A stretch of DNA of 64,000 nt from Minisyncoccota bacterium (GCA_041664625.1 JBAYKK010000001.1:1956-65955), one strand, 5' to 3'. Positions 16,672-64,000 are shown, counted from the stretch's first letter. Numbers and translations are program-made. Notes: generated from the sequence alone by a model not told the origin.

Positions 16672-17100
16672 GTGATGAATCTAAAAGAATTAAAATTAGC
16701 AGGTGGGCTTATTTATATGTGTGAAGGAACTAAACTTCGCCAAGATCTGCGTTATAAAAATACTTTTATATATGCGATAGAGTTTACTAATTCTAATCCT
16801 AAATTGGTTTTTTTGTTCGTTAAATTTATGAAAAAGATTTTGAATATTGAACCAAATAAAATTAAAGGCCAACTTTTTATTTATCCAGATTTAGATAAGA
16901 AAAAAGTTATGGATATATGGAGCAGTCGGACGGGTGTGCCCATTGAACAATTTCAAAAAATCATTATGCTTAAGGCGAAGGTTTCAAAATTTAAACATAA
17001 CCCATTAGGTACGTTTAAAGTGAGGTATTCGAGTAAAGAAAAATTTTTGAAGCTTCAGGAAATAATGGATAGTATTTGGAGAGATGCGAGAGTGGTTTAA
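16672..17100 (+). CDS. Hypothetical protein. 'LAGGLIYMCEG' weakly resembles a LAGLIDADG motif. Its 3' end overlaps tRNA-Ser by ~23 nt.
   Basis: ORF only. The motif resemblance is weak. Confidence 0.3.
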   Translation: MMNLKELKLAGGLIYMCEGTKLRQDLRYKNTFIYAIEFTNSNPKLVFLFVKFMKKILNIEPNKIKGQLFIYPDLDKKKVMDIWSSRTGVPIEQFQKIIMLKAKVSKFKHNPLGTFKVRYSSKEKFLKLQEIMDSIWRDARVV

Positions 17101-17162
17101 TCGGCAGACCTGGAAAGTCTGTGTGGGGCAACTCACCAAGGGTTCGAATCCCTTTCTCTCCG
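17078..17162 (+). tRNA. tRNA-Ser (anticodon GGA) with a long variable arm. CCA is not encoded.
   Basis: Hand fold: acceptor GGAGAGA/TCTCTCC, anticodon stem CAGAC/GTCTG with loop CTGGAAA, and T-arm AAGGG-TTCGAAT-CCCTT. It closely resembles E. coli tRNA-Ser. Confidence 0.8.
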
Positions 17163-17275
17163 CATTGACAATTTAGTATCGGTGTGTCCCGATTACTTGA
17201 GAGTAATCTGCGACCGGAATACTATAAAAAGTTGAACAAAAAATACGAGAGCTATTCGTATTTTTTGTTTTCCTA

Positions 17276-18604
17276 CTAAGCTATCAGAGTTATCTTTTTA
17301 TCCTTATACTCCAACCTGCTTCTGAGATTAGCCAGCAGTTCTCTTTTCTCGCTCGTGCTCCCTTCCTTGAGGAGATACTTGGCGTAATTCCTAATGTCGG
17401 TATCGTAGTTAGTTTGCGTTTTTTCTTTGGCTCCAAGCACAGATCGCTGGAAAATATTGTATCTTTTAATCTCTTCTTCCAACTTATGTTGCATCCCAAG
17501 CTCATTGAGATTCACTTGGTCTATGATTTTAAGAAGCCCGTCAATCAGTTCTTCCTCCCTAATATATTTATTCTTGCAATTCCGGTCTCTAGCTCGGCTA
17601 CACCCGTAGTATATGTAGTGAGCCGAAGTACCATCTTTAAGCGGCTTCCATTTTTCTTCAGCTGATATGCCAGACTGGCAGTACCCACAGGTGAAAAGCT
17701 TGGTAAAGGCAAACTCTTTGTTTTCTCTCACTATCTGATCCCGCTTAAGTTGAGCTTGGGTTTTTTCAAAAAGTTCCTGAGTAATTAACGGCTGGTGCTT
17801 GCCTTGGTACCAGTTTCCAGACTTGGTTGGATACTCAAATGGGCCGTAGTAGAAGGTATTTTGCAGTACTCGGTATACTCCACTTAACGTCAGGGGTTTA
17901 TTCCCCCGGGTATGGAAATTCAGTTCAAATTTCATCCAGTTGTAAATCCTTCTGCCAGAATATTGCTCGTACGCCACCTTCTCAAACATCTTTTTTATTA
18001 TCGGAGCTCTCGCAGGATCAACTAACAACACGCACTTCCTATCCATCATTTTTTGGGTTAAATATCCAAGTGGTGCTTGAGTTGGCCAGAGACCCATCTC
18101 TACTCTAGTTCGCAAACCTCTTTTTACATTGATGCCTCGGTTATCGTTTTCTAGTTTTGCCTGACTGCCTAAAATCATCAGGAGGAATTTTTCATTAGGG
18201 TTATTTGAAAACTTCTGACTATATGTGCGTATTTCCACCAAAAGTTTGGCATCCATGAGGTCTACGATTTTTCCCAAGTCCCCGGCATTCCTTGAAATTC
18301 TGTCCGATGCCCAGGTTAATATTCCATTATATTTTTCTTTCCTAATATCATCGATTATTTCATTAAAGACCACTCTTGTACCGGTCTCTTTTGCAGAGTG
18401 ACTTTCTCTCTTAATTTCTACCACCTCCAACCCTTCCTTTTCAGCCAGTTGAAGCATCTCCTTCACCTGACTATCAATGCTCAAAACTTGCCTCTCCTCG
18501 GACTCGGTACTCTTCCTAGCATAGAGGCAGTATTTGACCGGAACCACCACTTCTTCTTTTTTCTTGAAATCTATAATCGAACTTCTTATTTGTGTTTCTT
18601 GCAT
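17276..18604 (-). CDS. Large serine recombinase (integrase).
   Basis: Catalytic 'YARKSTESEE..SIDSQ' N-terminus, a recombinase domain and a C-terminal Cys cluster 'CGYC...C'. Confidence 0.85.
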   Translation of the reverse strand: MQETQIRSSIIDFKKKEEVVVPVKYCLYARKSTESEERQVLSIDSQVKEMLQLAEKEGLEVVEIKRESHSAKETGTRVVFNEIIDDIRKEKYNGILTWASDRISRNAGDLGKIVDLMDAKLLVEIRTYSQKFSNNPNEKFLLMILGSQAKLENDNRGINVKRGLRTRVEMGLWPTQAPLGYLTQKMMDRKCVLLVDPARAPIIKKMFEKVAYEQYSGRRIYNWMKFELNFHTRGNKPLTLSGVYRVLQNTFYYGPFEYPTKSGNWYQGKHQPLITQELFEKTQAQLKRDQIVRENKEFAFTKLFTCGYCQSGISAEEKWKPLKDGTSAHYIYYGCSRARDRNCKNKYIREEELIDGLLKIIDQVNLNELGMQHKLEEEIKRYNIFQRSVLGAKEKTQTNYDTDIRNYAKYLLKEGSTSEKRELLANLRSRLEYKDKKITLIA

Positions 18605-18746: not shown

Positions 18747-19166
18747 ATGTTTTCAATAGATCTTAAAAAAATTACTAAAATATCAGCGATATTTATTATC
18801 CTGGGAGCAGTGATTTTTGGCTATTTTTGTCTAGACACATTTACTCACCATCAAATGGAAGCGGGGTTAACCGGTAACACTTCATCTGTAATGCAGAATG
18901 CTGAATCTTGTTGTAGTACAACTTTTTCAAAATATTCAGAATCCTTACTATCTAATTTTAATTTGTCATCAAGGGCTGATGATTATTTACTCATTCTTAT
19001 TATCTCAGTTGTATTAGCTTATATAATAAATTTGCTACTTCGCAGTATTACAAATACAGGTTCCTTATTGCAGAGATTGTTCTTACTGCAAAACCCAAAT
19101 CTCGTCGCGTTTAATTCTCTTAAACTAGCTTTTTCAAACGGAATAATTAATCCAAAAATTTTTTAA
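18747..19166 (+). CDS. Hypothetical membrane protein.
   Basis: Two hydrophobic helices. A terminator hairpin follows at 19181-19220. Confidence 0.4.
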   Translation: MFSIDLKKITKISAIFIILGAVIFGYFCLDTFTHHQMEAGLTGNTSSVMQNAESCCSTTFSKYSESLLSNFNLSSRADDYLLILIISVVLAYIINLLLRSITNTGSLLQRLFLLQNPNLVAFNSLKLAFSNGIINPKIF

Positions 19167-19244
19167 CTTCCCAAGTTGTTGCGCTTAATAATGTTTAAGC
19201 GCGTGCCTTTTTGTATTTTACTAATTATTAAACTTAAATAAGTT

Positions 19245-19967
19245 ATGGAAACCGAATTAAAAAAAGAGCGTATATCCATACCCACAGCAATTATCCTGGC
19301 GGGTGTATTAATTGCTGGAGCGGTGATATGGAGTAATAAAAGCAATGCAAATTTAGCTCAAAAACAGCAACCTCAACAAGTCGCGCAGCAGACCGGCGAC
19401 CTCGAGCAGATGGCTAAAATATCTGCTAGCGACCACATTCGCGGTAATCCAGATGCGCCAGTTAAAATCGTCGAATACTCGGACCCGGAATGTCCATTCT
19501 GCAAACGCTTCCACGACACGATGAAGCAGGTCATGGATGAGTACGGCAAAGACGGAAAGGTTGCGTGGGTCTACCGTAATTTTCCGCTTGATCAACTCCA
19601 TCCAAAAGCTCGCAATGAATCCGTGGCTATCGAATGTGCCGGTGATTTAGGAGGTAACGACAAATTCTGGTCATATGCCGATCGGCTCTACGAAGTGACT
19701 CCCTCAAACAACGGCCTTGATCCAGCAGAGCTTCCCAAAATAGCTCAATATGTTGGCCTTGATGTAAGTAAATTCAACAGCTGTCTTACGAGTGGAAAAT
19801 TCGACAAACACATTGAGGATGATGTTCAGAATGCCGCTGCAACAGGTGGAAACGGTACGCCATGGAGCATTGTGGTTGATAAGAATGGTAAGAAGTACCC
19901 TCTGTCCGGCGCACAGCCCTACGCTTCAGTAAAACAGCTAATAGATATCGCTCTACAAAGCAAATAA
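19245..19967 (+). CDS. DsbA-family thiol:disulfide oxidoreductase.
   Basis: N-terminal TM anchor and the thioredoxin-fold active site 'CPFC'. Confidence 0.75.
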   Translation: METELKKERISIPTAIILAGVLIAGAVIWSNKSNANLAQKQQPQQVAQQTGDLEQMAKISASDHIRGNPDAPVKIVEYSDPECPFCKRFHDTMKQVMDEYGKDGKVAWVYRNFPLDQLHPKARNESVAIECAGDLGGNDKFWSYADRLYEVTPSNNGLDPAELPKIAQYVGLDVSKFNSCLTSGKFDKHIEDDVQNAAATGGNGTPWSIVVDKNGKKYPLSGAQPYASVKQLIDIALQSK

Positions 19968-19971
19968 CTCT

Positions 19972-20514
19972 ATGGTATTTCAAGCTCTGCAAAAAGTATT
20001 CCGGAGACCACAGTATGCGCTACTTGCTTTCGTAACAAGCGTAACAGTCTTTGTGTTTGCTGTCTGGTTCCCAAACCTACCACTGATTGTAAGAATCATG
20101 GGACACTCAGACATATTATTCTCGCAGAAGTTTGATCTACCAATCAGTCTTTTAGGATCAATTGTTACCAACTTCACTCTGCTCTCCGCTTCATACACTA
20201 TAGCTATCGCTATTTTGTTCGGAATTAATCTGTCTATGCTCGTCTACTTTTTGCGGCGAAGAGTTGCTGAAGTAAAACAAGGAGGAATTGCCACAGGAAT
20301 ATTTGGTATTACGAGCGGAGTTGTAGGAATCGGCTGTGCCGCCTGCGGATCGTTTCTCTTGACCAGTATTCTCTCGCTAGTTGGTGCATCCTGGATACTT
20401 TCATTTCTTCCCTTGCGCGGAGCGGAATTTGGCATCTTAGGGGTAATCTTACTTTCCACATCACTCTACACAACAGCGAAGAAAATCCAAAATCCGGTTA
20501 TCTGCAAAATTTAG
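19972..20514 (+). CDS. Polytopic membrane protein with an intramembrane CxxC ('GCAACGS').
   Basis: Hydropathy pattern and the Cys motif. Confidence 0.45.
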   Translation: MVFQALQKVFRRPQYALLAFVTSVTVFVFAVWFPNLPLIVRIMGHSDILFSQKFDLPISLLGSIVTNFTLLSASYTIAIAILFGINLSMLVYFLRRRVAEVKQGGIATGIFGITSGVVGIGCAACGSFLLTSILSLVGASWILSFLPLRGAEFGILGVILLSTSLYTTAKKIQNPVICKI

Positions 20515-20537
20515 CCACAATCATTTAAATCAAAAAT

Positions 20538-21134
20538 ATGGAACCCACAATAAATCAAGAATTAACACGTCAGCAGCGCAGAGAGGTTGAACGACAAGAA
20601 AGAAAAAAAGGAGAAGGGTCGTCTCTACAAAAACGGAAAATAAAAAAGGTTTTGCTTTGGACAATCGGTACTCTTATCGTGATTGGGATAATCTATTTGC
20701 TTGCAATAAGTGTAAAAAACCAAAAACCAAGGCCTGGTGAAGCCTTTTCAGTACAAGGACAAGAACATATTGCGGTTGGAGCAACTCACGAAGAGTACAA
20801 CTCTAACTTACCCACATCCGGCCCTCATTACGCACAACCCGCAAAATGGGGAGTGTACCAGAGCGAACTGCCTGATGAACAAGTTGTCCACAATCTTGAG
20901 CACGGTGGCATCTGGATTGCTTATAAAGACATTCCTGAAGACACAAAAACTACTTTGGAAGAAATTACAAAATCCGGATTGAAGATAATTATGACACCCA
21001 GAGCCAAAAATGATGCACCTATCACTCTCGCTTCTTGGGGAAGAGTTCAGAAGTTTGAGAGTTTTGACAGACAGGCCATCTTAGACTTTATCAGAGCCAA
21101 TACTAACAAATCACCTGAACCATTTGCGCAGTAG
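20538..21134 (+). CDS. Membrane-anchored secreted protein, possibly DUF3105-like.
   Basis: 'SGPHY....HNLEHGGIWI' pattern. Family assignment is tentative. Confidence 0.4.
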   Translation: MEPTINQELTRQQRREVERQERKKGEGSSLQKRKIKKVLLWTIGTLIVIGIIYLLAISVKNQKPRPGEAFSVQGQEHIAVGATHEEYNSNLPTSGPHYAQPAKWGVYQSELPDEQVVHNLEHGGIWIAYKDIPEDTKTTLEEITKSGLKIIMTPRAKNDAPITLASWGRVQKFESFDRQAILDFIRANTNKSPEPFAQ

Positions 21135-21253
21135 GCGAGAAATAAAGAATGTTGGTTATCCACAGGTGTATATTTGACAAATAGAGTATAGGGGTATAGG
21201 GTATATATAGGTCGATAATAATCAATCCAAATTACCCTATAAACCACTAAATC

Positions 21254-21526
21254 ATGTTAGATCAAAAACTAAAAAAGAAAGCCACCCACCGAGCCAGAAT
21301 CATTCGCGGTCAGATGGATGGCTTAATAAAAGCAATAGAAGAAGAAAAGTATTGTGTTGATTTGATAACACAGTCTCGATCAATTCAGCTCTCACTCAAG
21401 AGTATGGACAGGGTGCTTCTTGCCAACCATCTTCAGGGTCATGTGAAGCACATGCTCAATGATAAAAAACAAGAAGCCAAAGCCATTAAAGAGCTCGTCG
21501 ACCTCTACGCGTTATCAAACAAATAA
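21254..21526 (+). CDS. CsoR/RcnR-family metal-sensing transcriptional repressor.
   Basis: 90 aa helical protein with Cys (YCVD) and His (HLQGH) at the CsoR metal-ligand positions. Confidence 0.6.
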   Translation: MLDQKLKKKATHRARIIRGQMDGLIKAIEEEKYCVDLITQSRSIQLSLKSMDRVLLANHLQGHVKHMLNDKKQEAKAIKELVDLYALSNK

Positions 21527-21528
21527 CC

Positions 21529-21738
21529 ATGCGCAAAAAAATTACATCATTTTTAAAGAAATTTGGAATGCATGAGGTGAAAGAACCTCAGACTTTCTTT
21601 GATGTTGTTTGCGGTATGGAGCTTACAGTGGATAAAATCAAGCACACCGTTGAGCACACGAACGGCACTGCGTATCATTTCTGTTCGAAGTCGTGCAAGG
21701 ATCATTTCGTCAATGATCCTCAAAAATATCTAAGTTAA
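21529..21738 (+). CDS. YHS/TRASH-domain metal-binding protein (1 of 3).
   Basis: 'DVVCGM....YHFCSKSCKDHFVNDP'. Confidence 0.7.
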   Translation: MRKKITSFLKKFGMHEVKEPQTFFDVVCGMELTVDKIKHTVEHTNGTAYHFCSKSCKDHFVNDPQKYLS

Positions 21739-21760
21739 TTAATCAATTAACTCAAAAAAT

Positions 21761-21997
21761 ATGAAGATGTCAAAAATATTGCATGTTGTCAGCGTTATAT
21801 CGGGAATCTTGGGAGTCCTCTCTTTTCTTGGTTTGTTTGGCGGAGGAATGATGTCTGGGTTCTCTGGAATGATGGGATACGGACAAGGGTCTACACTCAT
21901 GCCCATGGGTTCGATAGTATTCTTTCTCATCGCTATCTGGCTTCAGCTCGCAACCATGCATCACATGATGCTCGAGAAGAAAAGAGAGCTTGTTTAG
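21761..21997 (+). CDS. Small membrane protein with a Met/Gly-rich loop ('GGGMMSGFSGMMGYGQGSTLMPMGS').
   Basis: Met-rich motif of the kind seen in Cu(I)-binding proteins. Preceded by the AT palindrome motif. Confidence 0.45.
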   Translation: MKMSKILHVVSVISGILGVLSFLGLFGGGMMSGFSGMMGYGQGSTLMPMGSIVFFLIAIWLQLATMHHMMLEKKRELV

Positions 21998-22011
21998 ATT
22001 AAAAACTAATA

Positions 22012-22194
22012 ATGAAAACCATGGAAAATAACCACCCATCAAGAAAAGTGTTCGATCCAGTGTGTGGCATGGAGCTTGATATTGAAAATGTCAGACATTC
22101 TTTTGAACACGAAGGTATAGAGTATTACTTCTGTTCTGAGAAGTGCAAAACTGAATTTATTAATGATCCGGAAAAGTTTATTAAAAAAGATTAA
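22012..22194 (+). CDS. YHS/TRASH-domain metal-binding protein (2 of 3).
   Basis: 'DPVCGM....YYFCSEKCKTEFINDP'. Confidence 0.7.
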   Translation: MKTMENNHPSRKVFDPVCGMELDIENVRHSFEHEGIEYYFCSEKCKTEFINDPEKFIKKD

Positions 22195-22224
22195 TTATCA
22201 CTTAATTAATAATTAACAAAAAAT

Positions 22225-22491
22225 ATGAATCTCTCACTAAAATCATATGGCTGGAAGTGTGTCATTGGAGCCGAAGTGGCATACATTCTTTGTGTATTGG
22301 GCGGATTCCTCCCCTTACGGTCAGCGGCTGGGATACAGCTTCATCACACCATTTTTGAAACTCTACCTGGCTTTACTTGGATTAGTTTTGGCAGCTTCAT
22401 ACTTGGTGCAATCTATATGTTCGTCTTCGCTTGGATTTTCGCTTCCTATTTCGTGTGGATGCACAATTCAAGTTTAATAAGTACTAAATAA
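22225..22491 (+). CDS. Small membrane protein.
   Basis: Two or three TM helices. Preceded by the conserved TTAATTAATAATTAAC motif. Confidence 0.4.
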   Translation: MNLSLKSYGWKCVIGAEVAYILCVLGGFLPLRSAAGIQLHHTIFETLPGFTWISFGSFILGAIYMFVFAWIFASYFVWMHNSSLISTK

Positions 22492-22499
22492 TCAAAATT

Positions 22500-22799
22500 A
22501 TGCACAACCACGAAAAAGACAATAAAGGAATGGGTTCTATGATGTGGATGATGCTCATCTGCTGTGCTGTACCACTGATTCTTATTCTTCTCTTTGGAGT
22601 AGGAGGCAAAGCATTTGGCGCTTCGTCATGGGTTATTTTTGGTGGAGTTGCGTTTATGCTGTTGGCCCACTTCTTTATGATGAGAGGCCATGGACATTCT
22701 AATGAAGAAAAAGATAAACAAGGTATTGCTGGTGAAGATAGCAAAAACAAAGATGATAAGGACCACAAAGATCATTCCGGTCATGGATGTTGCAGTTAA
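22500..22799 (+). CDS. Met/His-rich small membrane protein ending in 'SGHGCCS'.
   Basis: 'MGSMMWMM', 'HFFMMRGHGHS' and a C-terminal His/Asp/Lys-rich tail with a CC pair. Confidence 0.45.
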   Translation: MHNHEKDNKGMGSMMWMMLICCAVPLILILLFGVGGKAFGASSWVIFGGVAFMLLAHFFMMRGHGHSNEEKDKQGIAGEDSKNKDDKDHKDHSGHGCCS

Positions 22800-22815
22800 A
22801 TAAAGTTAAAATTAT

Positions 22816-23025
22816 ATGGAAAACAAAATAAAATCATTGATCAAAAAATTGAGTAGGTTTGGTTTTAGTGTCAAACCCAAAAAAGAAAGCCATATAGATC
22901 CCGTGTGCGGAATGGCGGTGTCGGATGATTCTCTCAAAGCCGATTATAAAGGCAAAAGTTATTATTTTTGCTCAAGCCACTGTAAAGAACAGTTCATAGC
23001 CAATCCTAGTGAGTACGTAGATTAA
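22816..23025 (+). CDS. YHS/TRASH-domain metal-binding protein (3 of 3).
   Basis: 'DPVCGM....YYFCSSHCKEQFIANP'. Confidence 0.7.
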   Translation: MENKIKSLIKKLSRFGFSVKPKKESHIDPVCGMAVSDDSLKADYKGKSYYFCSSHCKEQFIANPSEYVD

Positions 23026-23029
23026 AAAC

Positions 23030-23482
23030 ATGGATACAAAACAGAAGACAAAAATATTCCTTAATGCCATTACGGCGACTCTTTCGCTTCTACTTTTGTA
23101 TTTTGCCATAGTTACTCTGGTATCTGGCTTCAAATTTGCCATGTCTCAATTTGAAAGCTTTTGGTATTTTTTAATCAGTCTGGCGATAGGATTTGGAATC
23201 CAGATTGGTCTGTACTCTTATCTCAAACAACTGGTTAAAAACAGCAACACGATTATGAAGGACAAGACTATTGCAGTAACTGGGACAACTTCCACTCTAG
23301 CCATGATTTCATGCTGTGCTCATTATCTTGCCAATATTGTACCCATACTTGGTATAGCCGGAGCGCTTACTATTATCGCCCAATATCAAACTGAGATTTT
23401 CTGGGTTGGACTTGCATTTAACCTGTTTGGCATTGCATTTATCAGTAATAAAGTCATTAAATTTAAAAAATATCATGAATAA
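23030..23482 (+). CDS. Membrane protein with four predicted TM helices.
   Basis: Hydropathy. Confidence 0.45.
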   Translation: MDTKQKTKIFLNAITATLSLLLLYFAIVTLVSGFKFAMSQFESFWYFLISLAIGFGIQIGLYSYLKQLVKNSNTIMKDKTIAVTGTTSTLAMISCCAHYLANIVPILGIAGALTIIAQYQTEIFWVGLAFNLFGIAFISNKVIKFKKYHE

Positions 23483-23936
23483 AACAATTACAATATTGGT
23501 ACTGGTACTTGCTTTTATAGGTGGCTTCCTGCTTTTTTATAAGCCTAAACAAATTTCTAGTCCGACTACAGACAATTCTCCTGCATCAAGTACATTGGGT
23601 CAGTGGGAAACAAAAACTGATGAACAAGCAAATGTAACGGTTACCATTACCCCATCTGACATATCCATAGATTCAAAGGAGTGGAAATTTGATGTTGTTA
23701 TGAATACCCATTCGGTAGAATTGGATCAAGATATGGTTAAGGCGACAATTCTTATAGATAATCCGGGGGAGGAATATAAACCATTGCGCTGGGAAGGCGC
23801 TGGGCCTGGGGGCCATCACAGAGAAGGCACTTTGGTTTTTGCTCCAATCAAGCCCTATCCACAACACCTAAGCTTGATTATTAAGGGTATTGGCGACAAA
23901 GACAAAGCCTTTGCGTGGATCTTAAATGGGGAATAA
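23475..23936 (+). CDS. Hypothetical anchored or secreted protein.
   Basis: N-terminal TM helix, then a soluble domain with 'GGHHREG'. Confidence 0.35.
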   Translation: MNKTITILVLVLAFIGGFLLFYKPKQISSPTTDNSPASSTLGQWETKTDEQANVTVTITPSDISIDSKEWKFDVVMNTHSVELDQDMVKATILIDNPGEEYKPLRWEGAGPGGHHREGTLVFAPIKPYPQHLSLIIKGIGDKDKAFAWILNGE

Positions 23937-23959
23937 TTTTTTAATCAAATCAGAACGAT

Positions 23960-24484
23960 ATGAATCCAAAAATAAGACATCATGAAGAAAGTACGATAGT
24001 AGACATTTCTCCTATGAGACTTTTTGCGTACGTGGATGACCATGCCCGTTTTGCGTCACACATGAATAGTTCTTCTTGGATGATGGGCGGAGGACATATG
24101 AATACCCAAGTTGATACGGGGCGTGGCCAAAGAGTCGGTTCACATATACAAATGGACGGAAAAATTTTGGGCATTAATCTTTATCTTGATGAAGTTGTAA
24201 CGCAATACGAACCGCCTTATTTAAAAATATGGAAAACAGTTGGAGATATAAACCTCTTAATAATCGGCCACTATCAAATGGGTTTTAAAATAGAAGAAGA
24301 ACGTGGTAAGTCATTATTTACGGTGTTTATAAATTATAAACTGCCCCAATATATCGGTACTCGCTGGTTGGGATATTTATTGGGAGGAGTTTATGCGAAG
24401 TGGTGCGTTAAACAAATGCTTTCAGGCCCAACAAAATATTTTAATCATAATAACAAGAGACAAAATTATGGAACACAATCATAA
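23960..24484 (+). CDS. Hypothetical protein.
   Basis: ORF only. Its end overlaps the start of the ATPase gene. Confidence 0.3.
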   Translation: MNPKIRHHEESTIVDISPMRLFAYVDDHARFASHMNSSSWMMGGGHMNTQVDTGRGQRVGSHIQMDGKILGINLYLDEVVTQYEPPYLKIWKTVGDINLLIIGHYQMGFKIEEERGKSLFTVFINYKLPQYIGTRWLGYLLGGVYAKWCVKQMLSGPTKYFNHNNKRQNYGTQS

Positions 24485-26654
24485 TCCAATGAAAGAAAAA
24501 GATGGAATAATATACACCTGCCCCATGCATCCGGAGGTAAGGAAAACCGAGCCAGGCAAATGTCCAGGTTGCGGTATGGACTTGATTCCTGAAAAGAAAT
24601 CGGTAGGGGTTCACGCTGACCATGATATGCAAAAGATGAGCCATATGGATCATGAATCTGCCATGACAAATCCTCAGATGGCCAAGAAAATGGAAAAAGA
24701 TATGCGCCGAAGATTTTGGATTTCTTTCTTACTTTCCATCCCCATCTTTCTCTACTCCCCAGTCGGCATTAATTTCTTTGGGCTCAATCTGCCAACCCCA
24801 ATACCTATAAATTGGCTTCTCTTTATACTTACAACTCCGATAGTATTTTGGACCGGCTCGATCTTTATTACTGGTACCTACTACTCGCTCAAAGCCAAAA
24901 AACTCAATATGGCCGTGCTTATAGCCACCGGCGTTTTAGCTGCGTATCTTTTTAGTGTACTCCTCACTTTTATTCGACCGGGTAGCGAAACTTTTTATGA
25001 AGCGGCAGCTCTTTTAGTTACTTTCGTGTTGTTTGGCCATTGGATGGAAATGAAATCCCGCAGAGGCACTTCTGATTCGCTTAGGGCTCTTTTTGATCTT
25101 GTTCCACCAAAGGCAATTGTTATAAGAGATGGAAAAGAGTTGGTTATTTTAAGTTCCGAAATTATTAAAGGAGATATTGTTTTGGTAAAACCGGGTGACA
25201 AAATTCCGGTGGACGGCAAGGTTATTGAAGGAGAAACCAGTATAGATGAATCTCTCATTACCGGAGAATCAATTCCCGTAAGCAAAAATATCGGCGATGC
25301 TGTCGTTGGCGGATCGGTCAATATCACCGGGGTTATCAAATTTAAAGCTGAAAAAGTCGGTGCTGACACTGTATTAGCAAGCATCATTAAAATGGTTGAA
25401 ACTGCCCAGAACTCCAAAGCTCCTGGCCAGCGTATTGCCGATAAGGCGGCCGGATGGCTGGTAGTTGTAGCGATTGGCTCAGGGCTGGCCGCTTTTTTTG
25501 GCTGGTATGTATTCGCCGGCGCTGCTTTGATCACTGCTCTTACCTTTGCAGTCTCAACAGTGGTCATCGCGTGCCCTGACGCTCTTGGTTTAGCTACCCC
25601 TACGGCCGTTGCGGTGGGTACTGGAATAGGAGCTAAAAATAATATCCTTATCAAAGATGCGGCTACTTTGGAAAATACTTCTCGCCTAACTGCTATCGTG
25701 CTTGATAAGACCGGTACTTTAACTGAAGGAAAACCGAAAGTGACTGATGTTATTGCTTTCAATGGATTTACTGAAGATGAGATCATGAAATACGAAGCCA
25801 CTATTGAGTCCGGTTCCAATCATCCAATTGCCAAAGCTATTATTGACGAAGCAAAAAATAGAAATATTGAAATTGCTTCTCATCAAAATTTTGAATCAGT
25901 GGCAGGACACGGGCTAAGAGCGGTCATAGACGGCAAAAAAATATTAACTGGCAAAGAAAAACTATTGAATGATAATGGTGTTGATATAATAAAAGAAAGG
26001 ATTGTCTTTGAACGCTTGGCGAGTGAAGGTAAAACAGTCAGTATTTTGGCAGTTGACGGCAAAGTTGCCGGAGTAATAGCGGTAGCCGATACTATTAAAC
26101 CAAATTCCAAGAAAGCGATAGTTGCTCTAAAAAAATTAGGGCTTGAAGTCATTATGATTACCGGTGATAACCAGCGTGTTGCTCAAGGTGTCGCTAATGA
26201 GCTCGGCATAGACCGCTTCTTTGCTGAGGTCTTGCCGGAAGAAAAAGAAAACTATGTAAAAAAACTGCAAGATGAAGGGAAATTTGTGGCTATGGTTGGC
26301 GATGGTATAAATGACGCTCCCGCTTTGGCTCGTTCGGATATTGGTATTGCCATAGGAGCGGGTACAGACGTGGCTATTGAGACCGGCAATATTGTGCTTA
26401 TGAAATCCGATCCTTATGATATTGTGGCCGCCATTCGTTTAAGTAAAGCGACTGTCAGAAAAATGAAGCAAAATCTGTTTTGGGCTGCCATATACAACCT
26501 CCTTGCCATTCCAGTTGCGGCCGGGGCATTTTATAACTCGTTTGGGTTATCTCTTCGACCAGAAATAGCGGCGCTTTTAATGTCCGCTTCATCTATAATT
26601 GTCGCTACCAATGCTGTTTTGCTTAAAAGAGTGGAATCAAAATTAAAATTATAA
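24468..26654 (+). CDS. copA: Heavy-metal (Cu+-type) translocating P1B-type ATPase.
   Basis: N-terminal Cys cluster 'CPMHPEV..CPGCGM', TM 'CPC' ('ACPDALGLATP'), 'DKTGTLT', 'GDGINDAP' and 'MITGD'. Confidence 0.9.
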   Translation: MEHNHNPMKEKDGIIYTCPMHPEVRKTEPGKCPGCGMDLIPEKKSVGVHADHDMQKMSHMDHESAMTNPQMAKKMEKDMRRRFWISFLLSIPIFLYSPVGINFFGLNLPTPIPINWLLFILTTPIVFWTGSIFITGTYYSLKAKKLNMAVLIATGVLAAYLFSVLLTFIRPGSETFYEAAALLVTFVLFGHWMEMKSRRGTSDSLRALFDLVPPKAIVIRDGKELVILSSEIIKGDIVLVKPGDKIPVDGKVIEGETSIDESLITGESIPVSKNIGDAVVGGSVNITGVIKFKAEKVGADTVLASIIKMVETAQNSKAPGQRIADKAAGWLVVVAIGSGLAAFFGWYVFAGAALITALTFAVSTVVIACPDALGLATPTAVAVGTGIGAKNNILIKDAATLENTSRLTAIVLDKTGTLTEGKPKVTDVIAFNGFTEDEIMKYEATIESGSNHPIAKAIIDEAKNRNIEIASHQNFESVAGHGLRAVIDGKKILTGKEKLLNDNGVDIIKERIVFERLASEGKTVSILAVDGKVAGVIAVADTIKPNSKKAIVALKKLGLEVIMITGDNQRVAQGVANELGIDRFFAEVLPEEKENYVKKLQDEGKFVAMVGDGINDAPALARSDIGIAIGAGTDVAIETGNIVLMKSDPYDIVAAIRLSKATVRKMKQNLFWAAIYNLLAIPVAAGAFYNSFGLSLRPEIAALLMSASSIIVATNAVLLKRVESKLKL

Positions 26655-26658
26655 ATTT

Positions 26659-28263
26659 ATGAAAAATAAACTAACTATAGGAATCATTGCAGCCGTAGTC
26701 ATCATAGGTGGGATTGTCCTTGTACAAAGTCCGGACACTGGTAATAAAGTATTGGCTGGAAGTTTTTCTACTGATATAACCGGTCTGGCAGAAGCCAAAA
26801 CATCAGAGACTGTTGAGCTTAAAAACGGCGATACCTACGATCTCACGGCTTCAATTGTGAAGAAGATGATTGGCAACAGCGTGGTCAAAATGCTCGCCTA
26901 TAACGGCATGATTCCGGGACCCATGATTAAAGTGGAGCAAGGTGCGGAAGTAACACTCAATTTCACTAATAATACAGATGTTGACACCACGATTCATTCC
27001 CACGGAGTGCGACTTGATAATAAATTCGATGGCGTTCCAGACGTGACACAAAAAGAAGTTAAAACGGGCGAATCTTTCACTTATAAGGTCAAATTCCCTG
27101 ACGAGGGCATGTACTGGTATCACCCTCATATTCGAGAAGATTACGCACAGGAGCTTGGCCTTTACGGCAACTATCTTGTTACTCCCAATGATCCGAACTA
27201 CTGGTCTCCGGTCAATCGTGAAGTTGCGTTGTTCATAGACGACATCCTTATAGAAAACGGCAAGATTGCGACGTTTAGCAAAGCGTCTGCAGATCGCACG
27301 CTTATGGGCAGGTTCGGCAATACCATGCTTGTAAATGGCGAGATTGACTACACACTTCAAGCAAAAGCAGGAGAAGTAATCCGCTTCTATATCACGAACT
27401 CCGCGAATACAAGAACGTTTAATATCTCTATCCCCGGCGCAAAAATGAAACTTGTGGGAGCTGATGGCGGAAAATATGAACGCGAAACGTGGAGCGACGG
27501 TGTGGTTCTAGGCCCTTCTGAACGTACAATCGTTGAGGTGCTCTTTGCGAATTCCGGATCTTATATGCTTCAGCACAAAACTCCGAATCGTACTTATACA
27601 TTGGGAACGATTAATGTTACCAACGAGAAAGTAATTAATTCATTTGAGAAAGAGTTTGTGATACTACGTTCAAACAAAGACATGCAAGCGGAAATTGACG
27701 CATTCAGACCATTTTTCAATAAACCGGCAGATAAGCGTTTGAAGCTCACTATTGATATGGGTATGCAGATGCAGGGCATGATGCAAAACAATACCGGTGG
27801 CCACAATATGAATATGATGGGCGGCAATCAAATGATGCCCAACAGCGAAATGGTGGCTAGTGGCGATCCTATTGAGTGGGAGGAAAACAGTGCAACAATG
27901 AACGTTATGTCCAATTCTGAAATTATGAAATGGGTTATCCAAGACGAAGACACTGGCAAGAAAAATATGGATATTGATTGGAGCTTCAAAGTTGGCGACA
28001 AAGTTAAAATCAAAATCACCAACGATCCGAAGTCCGTGCACCCAATGCAACACCCTATTCACTTCCACGGCCAACGTTTTTTAGTACTTTCAACAAACGG
28101 CAAACCGAACGATAATCTTGTGTGGAAAGATACTACTCTAATCCCAAACGGAGATACAGTTGAACTTCTTGTTGAAATGACAAATCCAGGTGAATGGATG
28201 GCACACTGCCACATTGCCGAGCATTTGGAGGCAAGCATGATGTTTGGTTTTAAGGTTAATTAA
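26659..28263 (+). CDS. Multicopper oxidase with a Met-rich insert.
   Basis: 'HSHG', 'WYHPH', C-terminal 'HCHIAEHLEASMM', and the Met-rich 'MGMQMQGMMQ...MNMMGGNQMM'. Confidence 0.85.
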   Translation: MKNKLTIGIIAAVVIIGGIVLVQSPDTGNKVLAGSFSTDITGLAEAKTSETVELKNGDTYDLTASIVKKMIGNSVVKMLAYNGMIPGPMIKVEQGAEVTLNFTNNTDVDTTIHSHGVRLDNKFDGVPDVTQKEVKTGESFTYKVKFPDEGMYWYHPHIREDYAQELGLYGNYLVTPNDPNYWSPVNREVALFIDDILIENGKIATFSKASADRTLMGRFGNTMLVNGEIDYTLQAKAGEVIRFYITNSANTRTFNISIPGAKMKLVGADGGKYERETWSDGVVLGPSERTIVEVLFANSGSYMLQHKTPNRTYTLGTINVTNEKVINSFEKEFVILRSNKDMQAEIDAFRPFFNKPADKRLKLTIDMGMQMQGMMQNNTGGHNMNMMGGNQMMPNSEMVASGDPIEWEENSATMNVMSNSEIMKWVIQDEDTGKKNMDIDWSFKVGDKVKIKITNDPKSVHPMQHPIHFHGQRFLVLSTNGKPNDNLVWKDTTLIPNGDTVELLVEMTNPGEWMAHCHIAEHLEASMMFGFKVN

Positions 28264-28281
28264 AATTATAAAAATAAAAAT

Positions 28282-28914
28282 ATGTCATCAGCATCAGGTT
28301 ATGGAATGTGGGGATTGGTAGTATTAAATGTAGCGATTTTTCTTATATTCGCTTTCAGTTTTACTCATCCAAAAACAAAAAGAGATTGGCGATCATTCGG
28401 AGCATTTTCGGCATTTATTGTGGCGTTGTTTACAGAAATGTATGGCTTTCCGCTGACCATTTATTTTCTTTCCGGTTGGCTTACGAAATGGGTACCCGGA
28501 CTTGATCCTTTTACACACAACTCTGGTCATATTTTAGAAGACCTTTTTGGGTGGGGTGGCGATCCTCATTTTGGACCGTTCCATATTGCAAGCTATATTC
28601 TGATTTTTTACGGATTTAGTTTGCTTGCTAAATCATGGAAAGTTCTTTATGCAAGTCAGCGTGAACATACTCTCGCCACTACCGGCCCGTACGCTCGTAT
28701 CCGCCATCCTCAATATGTGGGATTTGTAACTATCATGTTCGGATTTCTTTTGCAGTGGCCTACTATACTCACGGTTATCATGTTTCCAATTCTAATATGG
28801 GTTTATACTCGCCTTGCTTACAGAGAAGAAAGAGAAATGCAAAAAGAATTTGGCGATGTTTACAAAAAATATTATGAACAAGTTCCCGCTTTTATTCCTA
28901 GGTTAAAAAAGTAA
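28282..28914 (+). CDS. Isoprenylcysteine carboxyl methyltransferase (ICMT)-family membrane methyltransferase.
   Basis: 'RHPQYVG' motif and TM helices. Confidence 0.55.
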   Translation: MSSASGYGMWGLVVLNVAIFLIFAFSFTHPKTKRDWRSFGAFSAFIVALFTEMYGFPLTIYFLSGWLTKWVPGLDPFTHNSGHILEDLFGWGGDPHFGPFHIASYILIFYGFSLLAKSWKVLYASQREHTLATTGPYARIRHPQYVGFVTIMFGFLLQWPTILTVIMFPILIWVYTRLAYREEREMQKEFGDVYKKYYEQVPAFIPRLKK

Positions 28915-28941
28915 AGTATGCTATACTTTTAGCAACCAAAT

Positions 28942-29349
28942 ATGAAATACATTGCAACGTTGATTTTCATAAGTTTTTTGGGATTAGCCGTATTTAGCAC
29001 TATGGCTCTTAATCATAGGATGAACGATTCTGTGGATAACTGCATAGGTTCTAAAGTGGATAACACTCCTTGCCCTACCAACTTAGTGGCAGCGGCCGCT
29101 CATCACATTTCCGTTTATCAAGCGATTTTCAATACATTTATACCTTCAGTTAGTAACTCTCTTGTTTTATTAACATTACTGCTCCTTGCTCTAGCATTTA
29201 TATCCTGGTCTGCCAAAGATCTTATCAGCGAGACTTCCCAACTTAAATTTTTACATCAAAGATTAAGAGATTTTGAATTAGTAAGACATAAAGCTAGACA
29301 AAGATTTGTCTCTTGGCTTTCTCTTTTTGAATTGAGTCCTTCTATATAA
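28942..29349 (+). CDS. Hypothetical membrane protein.
   Basis: N-terminal and central TM segments. Confidence 0.35.
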   Translation: MKYIATLIFISFLGLAVFSTMALNHRMNDSVDNCIGSKVDNTPCPTNLVAAAAHHISVYQAIFNTFIPSVSNSLVLLTLLLLALAFISWSAKDLISETSQLKFLHQRLRDFELVRHKARQRFVSWLSLFELSPSI

Positions 29350-29446
29350 TCCGGCACGAATTAGCCTAAGCTTTTTCGTGCTGTTCAATATCCCATCTCT
29401 GGGATATTTCTATTTACTACTAAAATTATTAGCTTACAGAAAAATT

Positions 29447-30316
29447 ATGGAAATTCTCGTAGGAACATCTCTCGTGGCGGCATTCGTGGCCGGAGTAGCA
29501 GCTCTGTTCGCTCCATGTTGTGTGTCTGTTCTTCTGCCGTCTTACCTTGGGAACGTATTCAAAGAAAAATACAAAATTTTCTTTATGACTTTTGTATTTT
29601 TCCTCGGTATGGCAACAGTTTTCCTGCCGATCGGATTGGGAGCATCAATGTTGTCTCAAACTTTCAGCAAATACCACAGCCAAATATTCACGGTTGGCGG
29701 TATATTCCTGATGGTACTTGGGATCTTTATGCTGTTCGGTAAAAAAATGACCACACCTGCTTCTGTTAGAGATGGTATGAAAAAGCATGTTTCGTCCATC
29801 TATGTCCTTGGAATATTCTCAGCTATCGCAACTACTTGTTGCGCTCCGGTATTGGCTGGAGTGCTGACTCTCTCGGTCGCTAGTGGCACAGTTATTTGGG
29901 GAGTGATTTATACCCTTGCTTACGTCTTGGGTATGACATTGCCCCTATTCATCATTGCTGCACTTCTGGACAAATACAACCTTACGGAAAAAATAAAGGG
30001 GGCGAAAAAGATTGTGGCTATGCGGCTCGGAAGCTTTAAGTGGAGGATTACGGTCTCTGAACTCATCTCAAGCCTAATCTTCCTCGCAATGGGCGGATAT
30101 ATCACGTACTTGGCTTTTGCCAATAAATTGACTATGCATCCGTCCGATTATCAGCTGCAAATGAACATATACAACGCCAAATTTCTGGGTGCTATTCAGG
30201 GCTATGTAAAAATAATTCCCGAATATATTTGGGCTCTGATCTTCGTATTGATCGTGTCGTATATGTCATTTGCGTTTATCAAACTAATTAAAAAACAAAA
30301 CAATGAAAAAATTTAA
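29447..30316 (+). CDS. Polytopic membrane protein, possibly DsbD/CcdA-like ('APCC' in TM1).
   Basis: Six to eight TM helices with a conserved Cys pair. Family assignment is tentative. Confidence 0.4.
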   Translation: MEILVGTSLVAAFVAGVAALFAPCCVSVLLPSYLGNVFKEKYKIFFMTFVFFLGMATVFLPIGLGASMLSQTFSKYHSQIFTVGGIFLMVLGIFMLFGKKMTTPASVRDGMKKHVSSIYVLGIFSAIATTCCAPVLAGVLTLSVASGTVIWGVIYTLAYVLGMTLPLFIIAALLDKYNLTEKIKGAKKIVAMRLGSFKWRITVSELISSLIFLAMGGYITYLAFANKLTMHPSDYQLQMNIYNAKFLGAIQGYVKIIPEYIWALIFVLIVSYMSFAFIKLIKKQNNEKI

Positions 30317-30959
30317 GGAATACATACCGCTTTTAACAGCATTCATGTTCGTTATTGGGGTCGGGGCACTCGGATTTATTTTGTATAAATCGGCTCCGCC
30401 CCAAACTGCCCAATCTGCGACAGCGACTAATGATATGTCCAGCCATCACAGCGGAGGGGCTGGAGCAGTGACGGATAATGGTCCGCTCAATTCTCTAATA
30501 GGCAAAGCATTGCCGGATATAAGTCTCCAAGATAAAGATGGTAAAACATACGCCAATGCCGACCTTAAGGGTAAATATACAGTCCTTTTCTTCAATGAGG
30601 GGCTCATGTGTTATCCCGGATGTTGGAACCAAATTGCTGCTTTTGGCAGTGACTCGAGATTCAATTCGGCCGATGTACAGGCTATATCTGTAGTAGTTGA
30701 TTCGGCCAAAGATTGGCAAAAGGCTATCGCCAAAATGCCTAAACTGGCTAATGCTAGAACTATGTATGACACAGGGGCGAGCGCCTCAAAACAGCTCGGT
30801 ATGCTCTCCACTGCTTCTTCGATGCATAAAGGATCACTGCCCGGACACACGTATGTTTTGGTCGATAAAGATGGAATCGTAAAGTACGTTTATGACGATC
30901 CTAATATGGCTATCGCCAACGATTCTCTCTGGGGCAAAATTCAGGAATTAAACAAATAA
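30303..30959 (+). CDS. Thioredoxin-fold (redoxin/TlpA-like) protein with a CxxC ('CYPGC').
   Basis: 'KYTVLFFNEGLMCYPGC' and an N-terminal anchor. Confidence 0.55.
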   Translation: MKKFKEYIPLLTAFMFVIGVGALGFILYKSAPPQTAQSATATNDMSSHHSGGAGAVTDNGPLNSLIGKALPDISLQDKDGKTYANADLKGKYTVLFFNEGLMCYPGCWNQIAAFGSDSRFNSADVQAISVVVDSAKDWQKAIAKMPKLANARTMYDTGASASKQLGMLSTASSMHKGSLPGHTYVLVDKDGIVKYVYDDPNMAIANDSLWGKIQELNK

Positions 30960-30964
30960 CAATT

Positions 30965-31456
30965 ATGGACAAAAAACCAACAATGGAGGAGCTTGTGGAA
31001 AAAATAAATAAGCTCAAAGCTACGGGCGAACTTGATCTCTCTATGGAGGAAGATTTGAGTATAGCCATTATGAATCTGATTAGTCTGGAAGAACATTTCT
31101 ATTTTACCGGAGAAAAAACCGGTAAAAGCGAATATTTTGATTTGCTGGGCGAAACCAGGGAAATCAGAAAACAGCTTCTAGCTAAAATGATTGACAAAAA
31201 CGAAGGAGAGACTTGGTGCATTACCAAACACTTACTCGCTACGACCATGAGGCTTATAGAGGTCGGTACCAAGCTTCAATCGTCCGGCAAAAAAGAAGAA
31301 TCGCAAGATATGTTCAAAAAAGCCTATCAAATTTACTCTCTCTTTTGGGGACTTAGGCTTAAACTCATAGATTTACCTGAATTGAAAGAAGTATCAGGCG
31401 AGCCAATGACAAAAGAAGATATTATTAGCAAATTAGTAGACTGTTGCAAAGAATAG
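30965..31456 (+). CDS. Hypothetical protein.
   Basis: ORF only. Confidence 0.35.
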   Translation: MDKKPTMEELVEKINKLKATGELDLSMEEDLSIAIMNLISLEEHFYFTGEKTGKSEYFDLLGETREIRKQLLAKMIDKNEGETWCITKHLLATTMRLIEVGTKLQSSGKKEESQDMFKKAYQIYSLFWGLRLKLIDLPELKEVSGEPMTKEDIISKLVDCCKE

Positions 31457-31475
31457 ACTACACATTAAAAGTAAA

Positions 31476-32477: not shown

Positions 32478-32500
32478 GATTAAAATAGCCACAATAAAAA

Positions 32501-33388: not shown

Positions 33389-33418
33389 AATTATAAATTT
33401 AGATTAAACATTAAAATT

Positions 33419-36547: not shown

Positions 36548-36557
36548 ATAACTTGGG

Positions 36558-38562: not shown

Positions 38563-38638
38563 AAAATTGGGTTAATTTTTAATTGTTTCTTTAATAATGC
38601 TTACTTGCGACATATAGTAACTATTTTAGGCAAAAAAA

Positions 38639-39172: not shown

Positions 39173-39178
39173 TGTCTT

Positions 39179-63949: not shown

Positions 63950-64000
63950 TTTGTTATGTTTTGAACTGATATTTTTGAAACTTATCCACAGTTTTTTTGA

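Follow-up and report, generated by a model that had tools for sequence, protein, structure and literature searches.

We analysed 64,000 nucleotides of DNA from a Minisyncoccota bacterium (GCA_041664625.1 JBAYKK010000001.1:1956-65955), hereafter called the window, and concentrated on a run of small genes at positions 21254-23482. The first gene encodes a CsoR-like protein (21254-21526, 90 amino acids, PF02583). Further genes for short YHS-domain proteins (PF04945) and small membrane proteins follow. In order, these are YHS1 (21529-21738, 69 amino acids, first after csoR), M78 (21761-21997, 78 amino acids, with two transmembrane (TM) helices and a methionine-rich outer loop), YHS2 (22012-22194, 60 amino acids), M88 (22225-22491, 88 amino acids, two TM helices), M99 (22500-22799, 99 amino acids, two TM helices, probably DUF2933-type, lying between M88 and YHS3 and ending in HGCCS), YHS3 (22816-23025, 69 amino acids), and M150 (23030-23482, 150 amino acids, four TM helices). 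The next gene, P153 (23475-23936), overlaps the M150 stop codon by 8 nucleotides (nt). Beyond this lie an optional gene, P174 (23960-24484), and genes for a P1B ATPase with an N-terminal HMBD (24468-26654; PF00122, PF00702, and PF19335), a membrane-anchored multicopper oxidase (26659-28263; PF07731, PF07732, and PF00394), and an ICMT/PEMT-family membrane methyltransferase (28282-28914; PF04140 and PF04191). All are on the plus strand. An earlier note on this DNA had listed the open reading frames (ORFs) of the region and placed them between a CsoR-family gene and a CopA-type ATPase plus multicopper oxidase. The listed ORFs are real, with all YHS and CsoR matches above Pfam gathering scores, and further Pfam matches bear out the placement, the ATPase being of the P1B class. 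Genes of the operon overlap or are separated by 4-30 nt, and the distance from each YHS gene to the membrane ORF that follows it (M78, M88, or M150) is also 4-30 nt. In a consensus scan of the region, internal promoters and terminators showed no excess over chance. Hence, we treat the genes from csoR to the oxidase, at a minimum, as a single operon. The functional unit exceeds positions 21254-23482, since a promoter at 21156-21215 and P153 are included. As argued below, the region would be the promoter-proximal half of a polycistronic metal-detoxification operon, on an integrated island, in a Candidatus Paceibacterota genome. Proteins identical to those of the window are on record from an uncultured bacterium of this lineage, in a metagenome-assembled genome.

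Comparisons were made with 80 species-representative loci, collected around M88 and numbered with the prefix L, in which the gene families of the island were mapped by tblastn and iterated hidden Markov models; the choice of M88 as starting point biases this sample. The presence of each family was scanned in 86 sequences (85 fetched loci and the window). Across the 80 loci, island gene order is mosaic and some gene pairs are stable. For example, P153 directly follows M150 in 38/50 cases, M99 follows M88 in 47/81, M88 follows M78 in 15/20, and ICMT follows M99 in 27/61. A YHS gene lies directly upstream of M150 in 22/50 cases, of M78 in 6/20, and of M88 in 9/81. No YHS gene was present within 8 kb in 42/80 loci.

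The three YHS proteins match PF04945 with 40.5, 50.4, and 58.5 bits for YHS1, YHS2, and YHS3 respectively (cutoff 30.3; E-values 2.7e-10, 2.2e-13, and 6.6e-16). Each carries the pattern C-x(22-23)-C-x3-C, in which the cysteines are invariant in the alignment, and pairwise identity is 38-43%. We predict that YHS1-3 are cytosolic, and not periplasm-facing, because they have no signal peptide and because YHS domains occupy the cytoplasmic side of M150 in the fusion proteins described below. Note that we take the Paceibacterota lineage to be monoderm. When YHS domains from all loci were clustered, the resulting clades tracked gene position. Clades 4, 5, and 6, which have the signature DPVCGM...FCSDHC(K/R)QQFEKDP and include YHS3, are directly upstream of M150 in 20/21 cases. 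YHS1 and YHS2 belong to clade 2, members of which are usually found after csoR and before M78 or M88. Two other YHS clades occur in other contexts. A YHS gene directly follows csoR in 9/55 cases, and all are clade 2 except for one clade 3 case (L060). The earlier note had paired every YHS gene with a membrane partner, and co-occurrence supports this in part: the pairing holds for the YHS3 clade and M150, both as neighbours and as fusions, and it fails for M88 and M78, given the counts above and the many YHS-free loci. Two further observations concern the YHS proteins. First, YHS1 (21529-21575) and YHS3 (22816-22870) open with a short amphipathic stretch of basic character, (K/R)xIxSxIKK(L/F)..FG, that is kept in their clades and is not found in YHS2. 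This could be a membrane-docking or partner-docking helix. Second, at L009:6504-7064, a clade 2 YHS domain is fused behind an N-terminal domain of ~130 amino acids, which looks DUF302-like by eye and was identified by no search.

The partner of YHS3, M150, has 2200 homologues, its family counts 915 clusters at 50% identity, and scans of Pfam and NCBIfam assigned it to no family. The AlphaFold2 model contains five helices, four of which span the membrane (predicted local distance difference test score (pLDDT) 71). The third TM helix carries an invariant SCC(A/T)H motif, and many polar residues within the membrane are conserved. Because the N-terminus, second loop, and C-terminus are rich in lysine and arginine, both ends of M150 are expected to be cytoplasmic. 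No relative was found in the Protein Data Bank, either by sequence or by fold. In the P153 model, a TM anchor at the N-terminus is joined by a disordered linker to an immunoglobulin-like β-sandwich (pLDDT 81 overall and >90 in the sandwich). In alignments, H79, H114, and H115 of P153 are invariant and there is no conserved cysteine. Foldseek returned MPT63 as the best match (1.2e-4), and the copper protein CrdA was found at 0.016. With DUF5643 (PF18705), P153 scores 17.8 bits, below the cutoff of 34; 17/38 relatives also match this family weakly (best E-value 9.7e-6).

Fusion proteins tie these parts together. We took the best 150 representatives of the M150 family and confirmed domains using Pfam. 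While M150 is alone in 94, it is fused to P153 in 39, and is found with a YHS domain in 11, with an HMA domain in five, and with an HMBD in five. Two proteins combine YHS, M150, and P153 in a single chain. In another protein, the order is M150-YHS-TM-P153, and this places YHS inside, and P153 outside, the cell. Loci from candidate phyla radiation (CPR) bacteria also hold M150-P153 fusions, together with one DUF2933-YHS fusion. In a Nitrosomonadales genome, the gene order is YHS-HMBD-M150 (one chain), a P153 homologue (41% identity, hhalign 99.7%), a P1B ATPase with N-terminal YHS and HMBD, DUF2933, and ICMT. Another fusion adjoins csoR and an ATPase. In the window, YHS3, M150, and P153 are all present in order, with a 4 nt gap and an 8 nt overlap, and the same order recurs in related loci and as fusions. 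We conclude that YHS3-M150-P153 is a dedicated unit with interchangeable cytosolic metal-binding domains, and that its predicted inside/outside layout is the one shown by the fusion chains. The earlier note had proposed a periplasm-facing or membrane Cu(I) relay. A relay in the membrane is reasonable for YHS3 and M150, given their pairing and fusions; a periplasm-facing position for YHS is at odds with the missing signal peptide and the cytoplasmic side occupied in fusions.

The other small membrane ORFs are not noise, since M88 has 411 database homologues (~60-92% identity, nearly all in Patescibacteria), and the scan of 86 sequences found M78 in 21 and M99 in 68. The M88 family has a mean column identity of 80%, and 35 of the 88 positions are invariant, including C12, C23, H40, H41, E45, and M79-H80-N81. 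Against DUF5676 (PF18926) M88 scores 17.2 bits, under the cutoff of 27.6. Weak matches to the same family, spanning the full profile length, were found for 11/16 M88 relatives (best E-value 3.2e-5). Hence, M88 may be, at most, a distant relative of DUF5676. For M78, 19 homologues were aligned; columns are on average 66% identical, and IHHMMLEK is conserved at the C-terminus. The methionine-rich loop is confined to the subclade found in the window. M99 scores 18.1 bits with DUF2933 (PF11666; cutoff 21), and nine of 41 aligned members of the M99 family match DUF2933, with a best E-value of 1.1e-24. Because ICMT, the typical neighbour, is also shared, we consider M99 to be probably a divergent DUF2933-type protein. 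Its motifs comprise MHNH at the N-terminus, MMWMM..CC in the first TM helix, H..MM.GHG after the second, and HGCC(H/S) at the C-terminus. The tails of M99 proteins are of low complexity and rich in histidine and cysteine. Neither M99 nor M150 matched Mer transporter families in Pfam and NCBIfam, at E-values up to 0.1.

Pairwise hhalign comparisons indicate that M78, M88, and M99 are mutually unrelated (probability <2%). Of the triplicated module described in the earlier note, only the YHS half is a repeat; M78, M88, and M99, as membrane partners, share no homology with one another. On the same grounds, we rejected the idea that a unit of two genes was triplicated in tandem, and the only DNA repeats in the region are short leaders and the 3' termini of the YHS1 and YHS2 genes. 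ICMT, the usual neighbour of DUF2933-type genes, is displaced in the window to a position after the oxidase. We considered that ICMT might methylate the C-terminal CC(H/S) of M99. This is unsupported, since classical DUF2933 proteins that lack the tail (L055, L075, and L084) still adjoin ICMT. As a separate observation, the (S/G)HGCC(H/S) tail of DUF2933-like proteins also ends a distinct clade of short YHS-like zinc-ribbon proteins (KCPVCKMEL...FCSENC; L043:14233-14514). Because the tail is common to two protein types, it behaves as a portable metal-binding tag. Finally, homologues of M88, with 64-85% identity, occur in bins assigned to Thermodesulfovibrionia, Ignavibacteriaceae, Nanoarchaeota, Terriglobales/Terriglobia, and Dehalococcoidia (L013, L038, L044, L075, L083, and L084). 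Either the island has been transferred laterally out of CPR bacteria or these contigs are mis-binned. For the Terriglobia and Dehalococcoidia copies, real transfer is favoured because contigs are long and Shine-Dalgarno motifs are present.

We turn now to regulation. The CsoR-like protein matches PF02583 with 64.8 bits (cutoff 22.8, E-value 9.6e-18). Sensors of Cu(I) in the CsoR family have the fingerprint x-C-H-C, corresponding to Cys36, His61, and Cys65 of Mycobacterium tuberculosis CsoR. In the window protein, the equivalent ligand positions are C34-H59-H63, so that the third ligand is histidine and the Cu(I) fingerprint is absent. The same C-H-H set is kept in nearly all island CsoRs of related loci, with few C-H-C examples. 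The protein also lacks His3 of the Ni/Co sensor RcnR, having Asp3 instead, and nearly all island homologues likewise have no His3. CsoRs of the window type share a conserved His12 and a distinct operator, ATAGGGTATAGGGGTATAnnnTAT.

Upstream of csoR, the hexamer TTGACA (21174-21179, plus strand) is at a position conserved across loci and is likely the -35 hexamer of the operon. Next is a candidate CsoR operator, ATAGAGTATAGGGGTATAGGGTAT (21181-21204, plus strand), followed by a conserved AGGTCGA at 21209-21215. The full conserved promoter of window-type csoR genes reads TTGACA-(A/T)ATAGGGTATAGGGGTATA(G/C)(A/C)(G/C)TAT-AGGTAAGGTCGA, and the ATAGGGTATAGGGGTATA(G/C)(A/C)(G/C)TAT portion is kept upstream of every one of them. 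A palindromic form of the operator, ATAGGGTATAGGGGTATACCCTAT, is present in several loci, and the operator core, TATAGGGGTATA, occurs once in the window. At the same position, genes for a second class of island CsoR have ATACCCC-N3-GGGGTAT. This is a known type of CsoR operator, consisting of a G/C tract with AT-rich inverted arms. The predicted operator in the window likewise has a G/C tract between AT-rich inverted arms and overlaps the promoter of its own operon. Hence, the G-tract element at 21181-21204 is likely to be the CsoR operator. AGGTCGA was rejected as a general element because it is not enriched across the window; it is conserved only after the operator.

A further promoter-proximal feature is TTATCCACA (21156-21164, plus strand), a match to the DnaA box consensus ~10 nt upstream of the -35 hexamer. 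There are four exact copies in the window, at 21156-21164, 29031-29039 (minus strand), 39612-39620 (minus strand), and 63982-63990, compared with 0.62 expected. Exact, inverted, or one base off, TTATCCACA is found in the same place upstream of csoR in many loci (L006-L085) and for both CsoR classes. It may be an upstream promoter element or the site for another regulator. One of the other copies lies ahead of the promoter that serves two genes, an Xre/IrrE pair, at 39520.

The earlier note had nominated a different DNA element, an AT-rich motif, as a possible CsoR site. Two near-identical copies are indeed present: TTAATTAATCAATTAAC at 21735-21751, and TTAATTAATAATTAAC, one base shorter, at 22202-22217 (the note had the second copy starting at 22203). 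They lie in the AT-rich leaders of M78 (TTAATTAATCAATTAACTCAAAAAAT, 21735-21760, plus strand, overlapping the YHS1 stop codon) and M88 (TTAATTAATAATTAACAAAAAAT, 22202-22224, plus strand); the spacer sequences are TTAATTAATCAATTAACTCAAAAAATATG from 21735 and TTAATTAATAATTAACAAAAAATATG from 22202. Both copies thus lie inside the operon, where the stop codon of one gene is separated from the start codon of the next, and the conserved CsoR-type element is at the promoter instead. The motif core is nevertheless conserved: AATTAAT occurs at most 40 nt before M88 in 22/80 loci (on average 4.1 and at most 10 after shuffling) and before M78 in 7/19 (on average 1.3 after shuffling), counts that are non-independent as related loci share ancestry. 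Before most other families the core was found 0-2 times, and before M99 in 4/59 cases. Upstream of M88 it is independent of the preceding gene, which can be M78, YHS, g333, or none. A Shine-Dalgarno motif was found for 0/24 genes of the island (18747-34042) and for 4/43 window genes checked. All island genes have A/T-rich leaders that end in approximately AAAA(T/A)(T/A)ATG, as in AAAAATATG. Relatives of M88 outside the CPR (L075 and L084) carry GGAGG. We read the AT motif as probably a leader for translation without a Shine-Dalgarno motif, one that accompanies M88 and M78, and not as an operator; a protein-binding role is possible. An RNA hairpin was considered and rejected, since the predicted folds are weak (-5.1 and -3.6 kcal/mol; z-scores of -1.6 and -1.3). 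No match to Rfam was found for the motif.

In the ATPase, the TM motifs are CPD, YN, and MSASS. The E1-E2 ATPase and hydrolase domains are present. Of the motifs that define P1B-1 pumps of the CopA type (CPC in the metal-binding helix, YN, and MxxSS), the first is absent: CPD stands where CPC or CPH would be expected. In the sequences scanned, CPD is found in 26 island ATPases and CPC in 22. A single earlier report describes CPD, as a new motif of atypical copper pumps, P1B-3-like, in Rhizobiales (PMC5552934). The optional P174 matches PF10604, weakly and under the cutoff (E-value 9.7e-4), as an SRPBCC-like protein. It was found in eight of the sequences scanned, five of which are near-identical copies (L001-L005).

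In the usual description of a copper efflux operon, a P1B pump is accompanied by a sensor and a chaperone, and in some cases by an oxidase. Operons that join copper efflux to control by a repressor and to a small chaperone are, as an overall kind, already known. The Firmicutes csoR-copZ-copA arrangement is similar in that csoR is first, a small cytosolic metal binder is next, a P1B ATPase is downstream, and a G/C-tract operator overlaps the promoter. However, the window differs in having C-H-H rather than C-H-C in CsoR, a YHS/TRASH fold in the chaperone rather than the HMA fold of CopZ, six extra genes between repressor and ATPase, and an ATPase with CPD and an HMBD rather than CPC and an HMA domain. 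In Sulfolobus, CopM is a stand-alone TRASH chaperone of 56-71 amino acids, encoded beside the copper ATPase CopA, co-transcribed with it, and induced by copper (PMC3595675). YHS1-3 match CopM in size and cysteine motif. In contrast to the CopT-CopM-CopA system, the window regulator is of the CsoR family, whereas CopT is Lrp-like with a TRASH domain; there are three YHS paralogues of two clades, one of which is dedicated to M150 and not to the ATPase; and the host is a CPR bacterium rather than an archaeon. Gammaproteobacterial islands contain a merR-copA-cupredoxin-DUF2933-ICMT module in copper-induced clusters (PMC8478169). There too, a DUF2933-type protein with two TM helices and ICMT are paired beside a copper ATPase on islands, and the pair is also seen in CPR loci and Nitrosomonadales. 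The window departs from this module because the two genes are not adjacent, ICMT lying beyond the oxidase, because M99 is under the Pfam cutoff and has extra CC motifs, and because the regulator is of the CsoR rather than MerR type.

Two other resemblances concern design rather than sequence. Like MerP, MerT, and MerF, the window proteins include small membrane proteins with a vicinal cysteine pair in a TM helix, and soluble binders on each side. M99 presumably mirrors MerF, with one CC in the first TM helix and one at the C-terminus. However, the window has no detectable sequence similarity to Mer proteins, has no MerA, MerB, or MerR, and the outer partner, P153, is a β-sandwich with a histidine site and not an HMA fold. 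Similarly, CupA (Streptococcus pneumoniae), CopL (Staphylococcus aureus), and CrdA (Helicobacter pylori, a weak fold match of P153) are accessory proteins, anchored in the membrane or at the surface, in which a small, tethered, copper-binding, β-rich domain is encoded in a copper efflux operon. P153 differs from these in having no sequence relationship, in being coupled and often fused to a four-TM protein, and in its candidate ligands, which are three histidines rather than methionine/cysteine sites. The earlier note had judged the arrangement not to be a described copper-handling system. This is incorrect for YHS-type chaperones and for DUF2933-ICMT beside copA, given the CopM and gammaproteobacterial precedents. 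The judgement stands for M150 and P153: we found no description in the literature of YHS-membrane pairs or of M150/P153, though coverage was incomplete and this is weak evidence of absence. New, therefore, are the CPR-wide set of two-TM partners, the C-H-H branch of CsoR with its operator variant and, above all, the unannotated M150-P153 family with its fusions.

Taken as a whole, these data are best explained by a metal-detoxification operon, likely for copper, with YHS chaperones and a YHS3-M150-P153 relay, and we consider this explanation somewhat probable. In such an operon, the C-H-H CsoR-family repressor would bind the promoter-overlapping G-tract at 21181-21204 and, once loaded with metal, release the DNA. 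YHS1-3 would be cytosolic TRASH-type mini metallochaperones or buffers in place of CopZ, and we suggest that YHS1 and YHS2 in particular act in this CopZ-like way. These two clade 2 proteins would be optional additions ahead of the M78, M88, and M99 string, which is usually followed by ICMT. M78, M88, and M99 could serve as membrane-embedded acceptors or buffers for Cu(I). The dedicated unit would have three parts: a cytosolic YHS, HMA, or HMBD domain, depending on lineage; a bundle of four TM helices with CC-x-H in the third; and an anchored extracellular β-sandwich with a histidine triad. Cu(I) would pass from the cytosolic domain to the CC-H site of M150, and then to the P153 histidines, before oxidation by the neighbouring multicopper oxidase. 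We infer the passage from YHS3 through M150 and P153 to the oxidase, including its direction and any transport activity, from the layout of the parts. Copper is the probable substrate because of the oxidase, because the ATPase carries YN and MxxSS, and because CopM and DUF2933-ICMT offer precedents. A broader proposal follows the same logic. M150 and P153 may be widespread and unrecognized ATP-independent minimal metal translocators, a family of 915 or more clusters (50% identity) that is found in both CPR bacteria and Proteobacteria. They would move Cu(I) from YHS, HMA, or HMBD domains, via CC-x-H, to the histidine-triad sandwich, and so provide a second, pump-independent, copper route across the cytoplasmic membrane. 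This generalization is tentative, and we think it more doubtful than not.

Several observations weigh against the outward relay, or against copper as the metal. The M150 model is of moderate confidence, which is lowest around the CC motif, and the fold matches of P153 are to generic immunoglobulin-like domains. One of the YHS-M150-P153 fusions has no other metal gene in its locus. Furthermore, M150 has no adjacent YHS gene in 28/50 loci and stands alone in 94/150 representatives; the cytosolic domain must therefore be unnecessary or come from another source. Copper may not be the only metal, since the sensor has C-H-H where the Cu(I) triad would be C-H-C, and CPD takes the place of CPC in the ATPase. 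Because of the repressor ligands, we can only infer which metal is sensed. Finally, M150-P153 is directly after an AhpC/redoxin gene in five loci, with a DsbD-like gene ahead of it in 4/5, and in three loci a DsbD-like gene comes after P153. Such neighbours fit a thiol-redox role as well as a metal role.

Logically, the same parts could also work in the opposite direction. In a Mer-like inward route, P153 would capture metal outside the cell and M150 would conduct it, by way of its vicinal cysteines, to cytosolic YHS, HMA, or HMBD domains, to be buffered or pumped out, the benefit being that metal is kept off surface targets. Such a route fits the observed fusions and topology. The layout also parallels that of MerP, MerT, and NmerA in textbook accounts of mer (an outer soluble binder, a vicinal cysteine pair in a TM helix, and a cytosolic cysteine domain), and a small four-TM protein has no visible energy source for export against the membrane potential. 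However, neither sequence nor Pfam comparison shows any similarity to MerT, MerC, or MerF. A cell with no enzyme to detoxify it in the cytosol would have little reason to import a toxic metal, and the island has no MerA analogue. Moreover, the fused cytosolic domains are of the same kinds that, at the N-termini of P1B ATPases, accept metal destined for export. We regard inward transport as improbable.

Alternatively, M78, M88, M99, and the clade 2 YHS proteins may take no part in transport or in a relay. They would then be inducible cysteine, histidine, and methionine buffers, membrane-tethered or soluble, that reduce free metal until the ATPase clears it, and gene order would reflect cassette shuffling only. 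The highly mosaic order and optional YHS genes agree with this, as do the low-complexity M99 tails and the occurrence of the same HGCCH tail on some YHS-like proteins. Conversely, invariance of 35/88 positions in M88 across CPR lineages is beyond the needs of a sponge, and suggests a specific complex. In addition, the order M78, M88, M99, ICMT is conserved and the DUF2933-ICMT pairing persists in Proteobacteria. A simple sponge is, in our opinion, quite improbable, more so than the inward route.

The AhpC and DsbD-like neighbours described above raise a further alternative, in which the CC pair of M150 moves reducing power across the membrane, like CcdA or DsbD, and the YHS, HMA, or HMBD domain is a metal-sensing regulatory module. 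Under copper stress, such a shuttle would maintain the proper state of cysteines outside the cell, of P153, or of the oxidase. Consistent with this role, the island has DsbA-like, DsbD_TM, and redoxin genes, and VKOR is nearby. However, P153 has no conserved cysteine and its invariant residues are three histidines. The vicinal CC-x-H is a metal-ligand pattern, and not the CxxC of redox proteins, and M150 resembles DsbD, CcdA, DsbB, and VKOR neither in sequence nor in fold. Fusion to three different metal-binding domains also points to a metal substrate. Hence, a thiol-redox function seems very unlikely. Equally unlikely is the model of the earlier note, with three equal YHS-membrane pairs relaying Cu(I) to the ATPase and the AT motif as CsoR operator: in 41/55 cases the gene next after YHS is one of the four that encode small membrane proteins, the motif core is enriched before M88 and M78, and the YHS3-M150 pair is real, but unrelated partner families, YHS-free loci, cytoplasmic YHS domains, an intra-operon motif with the conserved operator elsewhere, and a YHS-M150-P153 fusion with no ATPase nearby all speak against it.

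Returning to the relay and its setting, the window and 80 related loci show that the CPR pump travels with conserved, tiny, cysteine-, histidine-, and methionine-containing membrane proteins that libraries leave unannotated. Fusion of M150 to metal-binding domains of the P1B type, and to an extracellular domain with a histidine site, links the parts at the sequence level and makes a three-part transmembrane metal relay a concrete and testable hypothesis. DUF2933, long uncharacterized, gains context and partners (M88 and ICMT). A C-H-H branch of CsoR sensors, with an operator variant of its own, is also indicated.

The genes upstream of csoR comprise a tRNA-Ser, a large serine recombinase, and a DsbA/DUF3105 group, and we therefore place the operon on an integrated island. 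The metal genes are bounded on one side by the tRNA-Ser and recombinase (17276-18604, minus strand), and on the other by the Xre/IrrE pair and two DNA methylases, one of which has a ParB-like N-terminal domain (36558-39520). With flanks at 17078-18604 and 36158-39520, the metal island resembles an integrative element of ~20 kb. No att repeats were found beside the tRNA-Ser. Locus L001 contains a near-identical island, with the same M48 peptidase and DnaB neighbours, in reverse orientation; its cargo differs, and includes ZIP, YibE_F, ArsR, FtsW, and a second ATPase. The group between recombinase and csoR (18747-21134) consists of g139, a DsbA-like thioredoxin, g180, which is a membrane protein with a GCAACG motif, and DUF3105. 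This group is seen again in several related islands. Genes for DsbD_TM and AhpC/redoxin proteins are farther downstream in the window, and a VKOR gene is outside the island (11682-12314). Given the DsbA-like, DsbD_TM, and redoxin neighbours, these islands join metal genes with genes for extracytoplasmic thiol-redox proteins.

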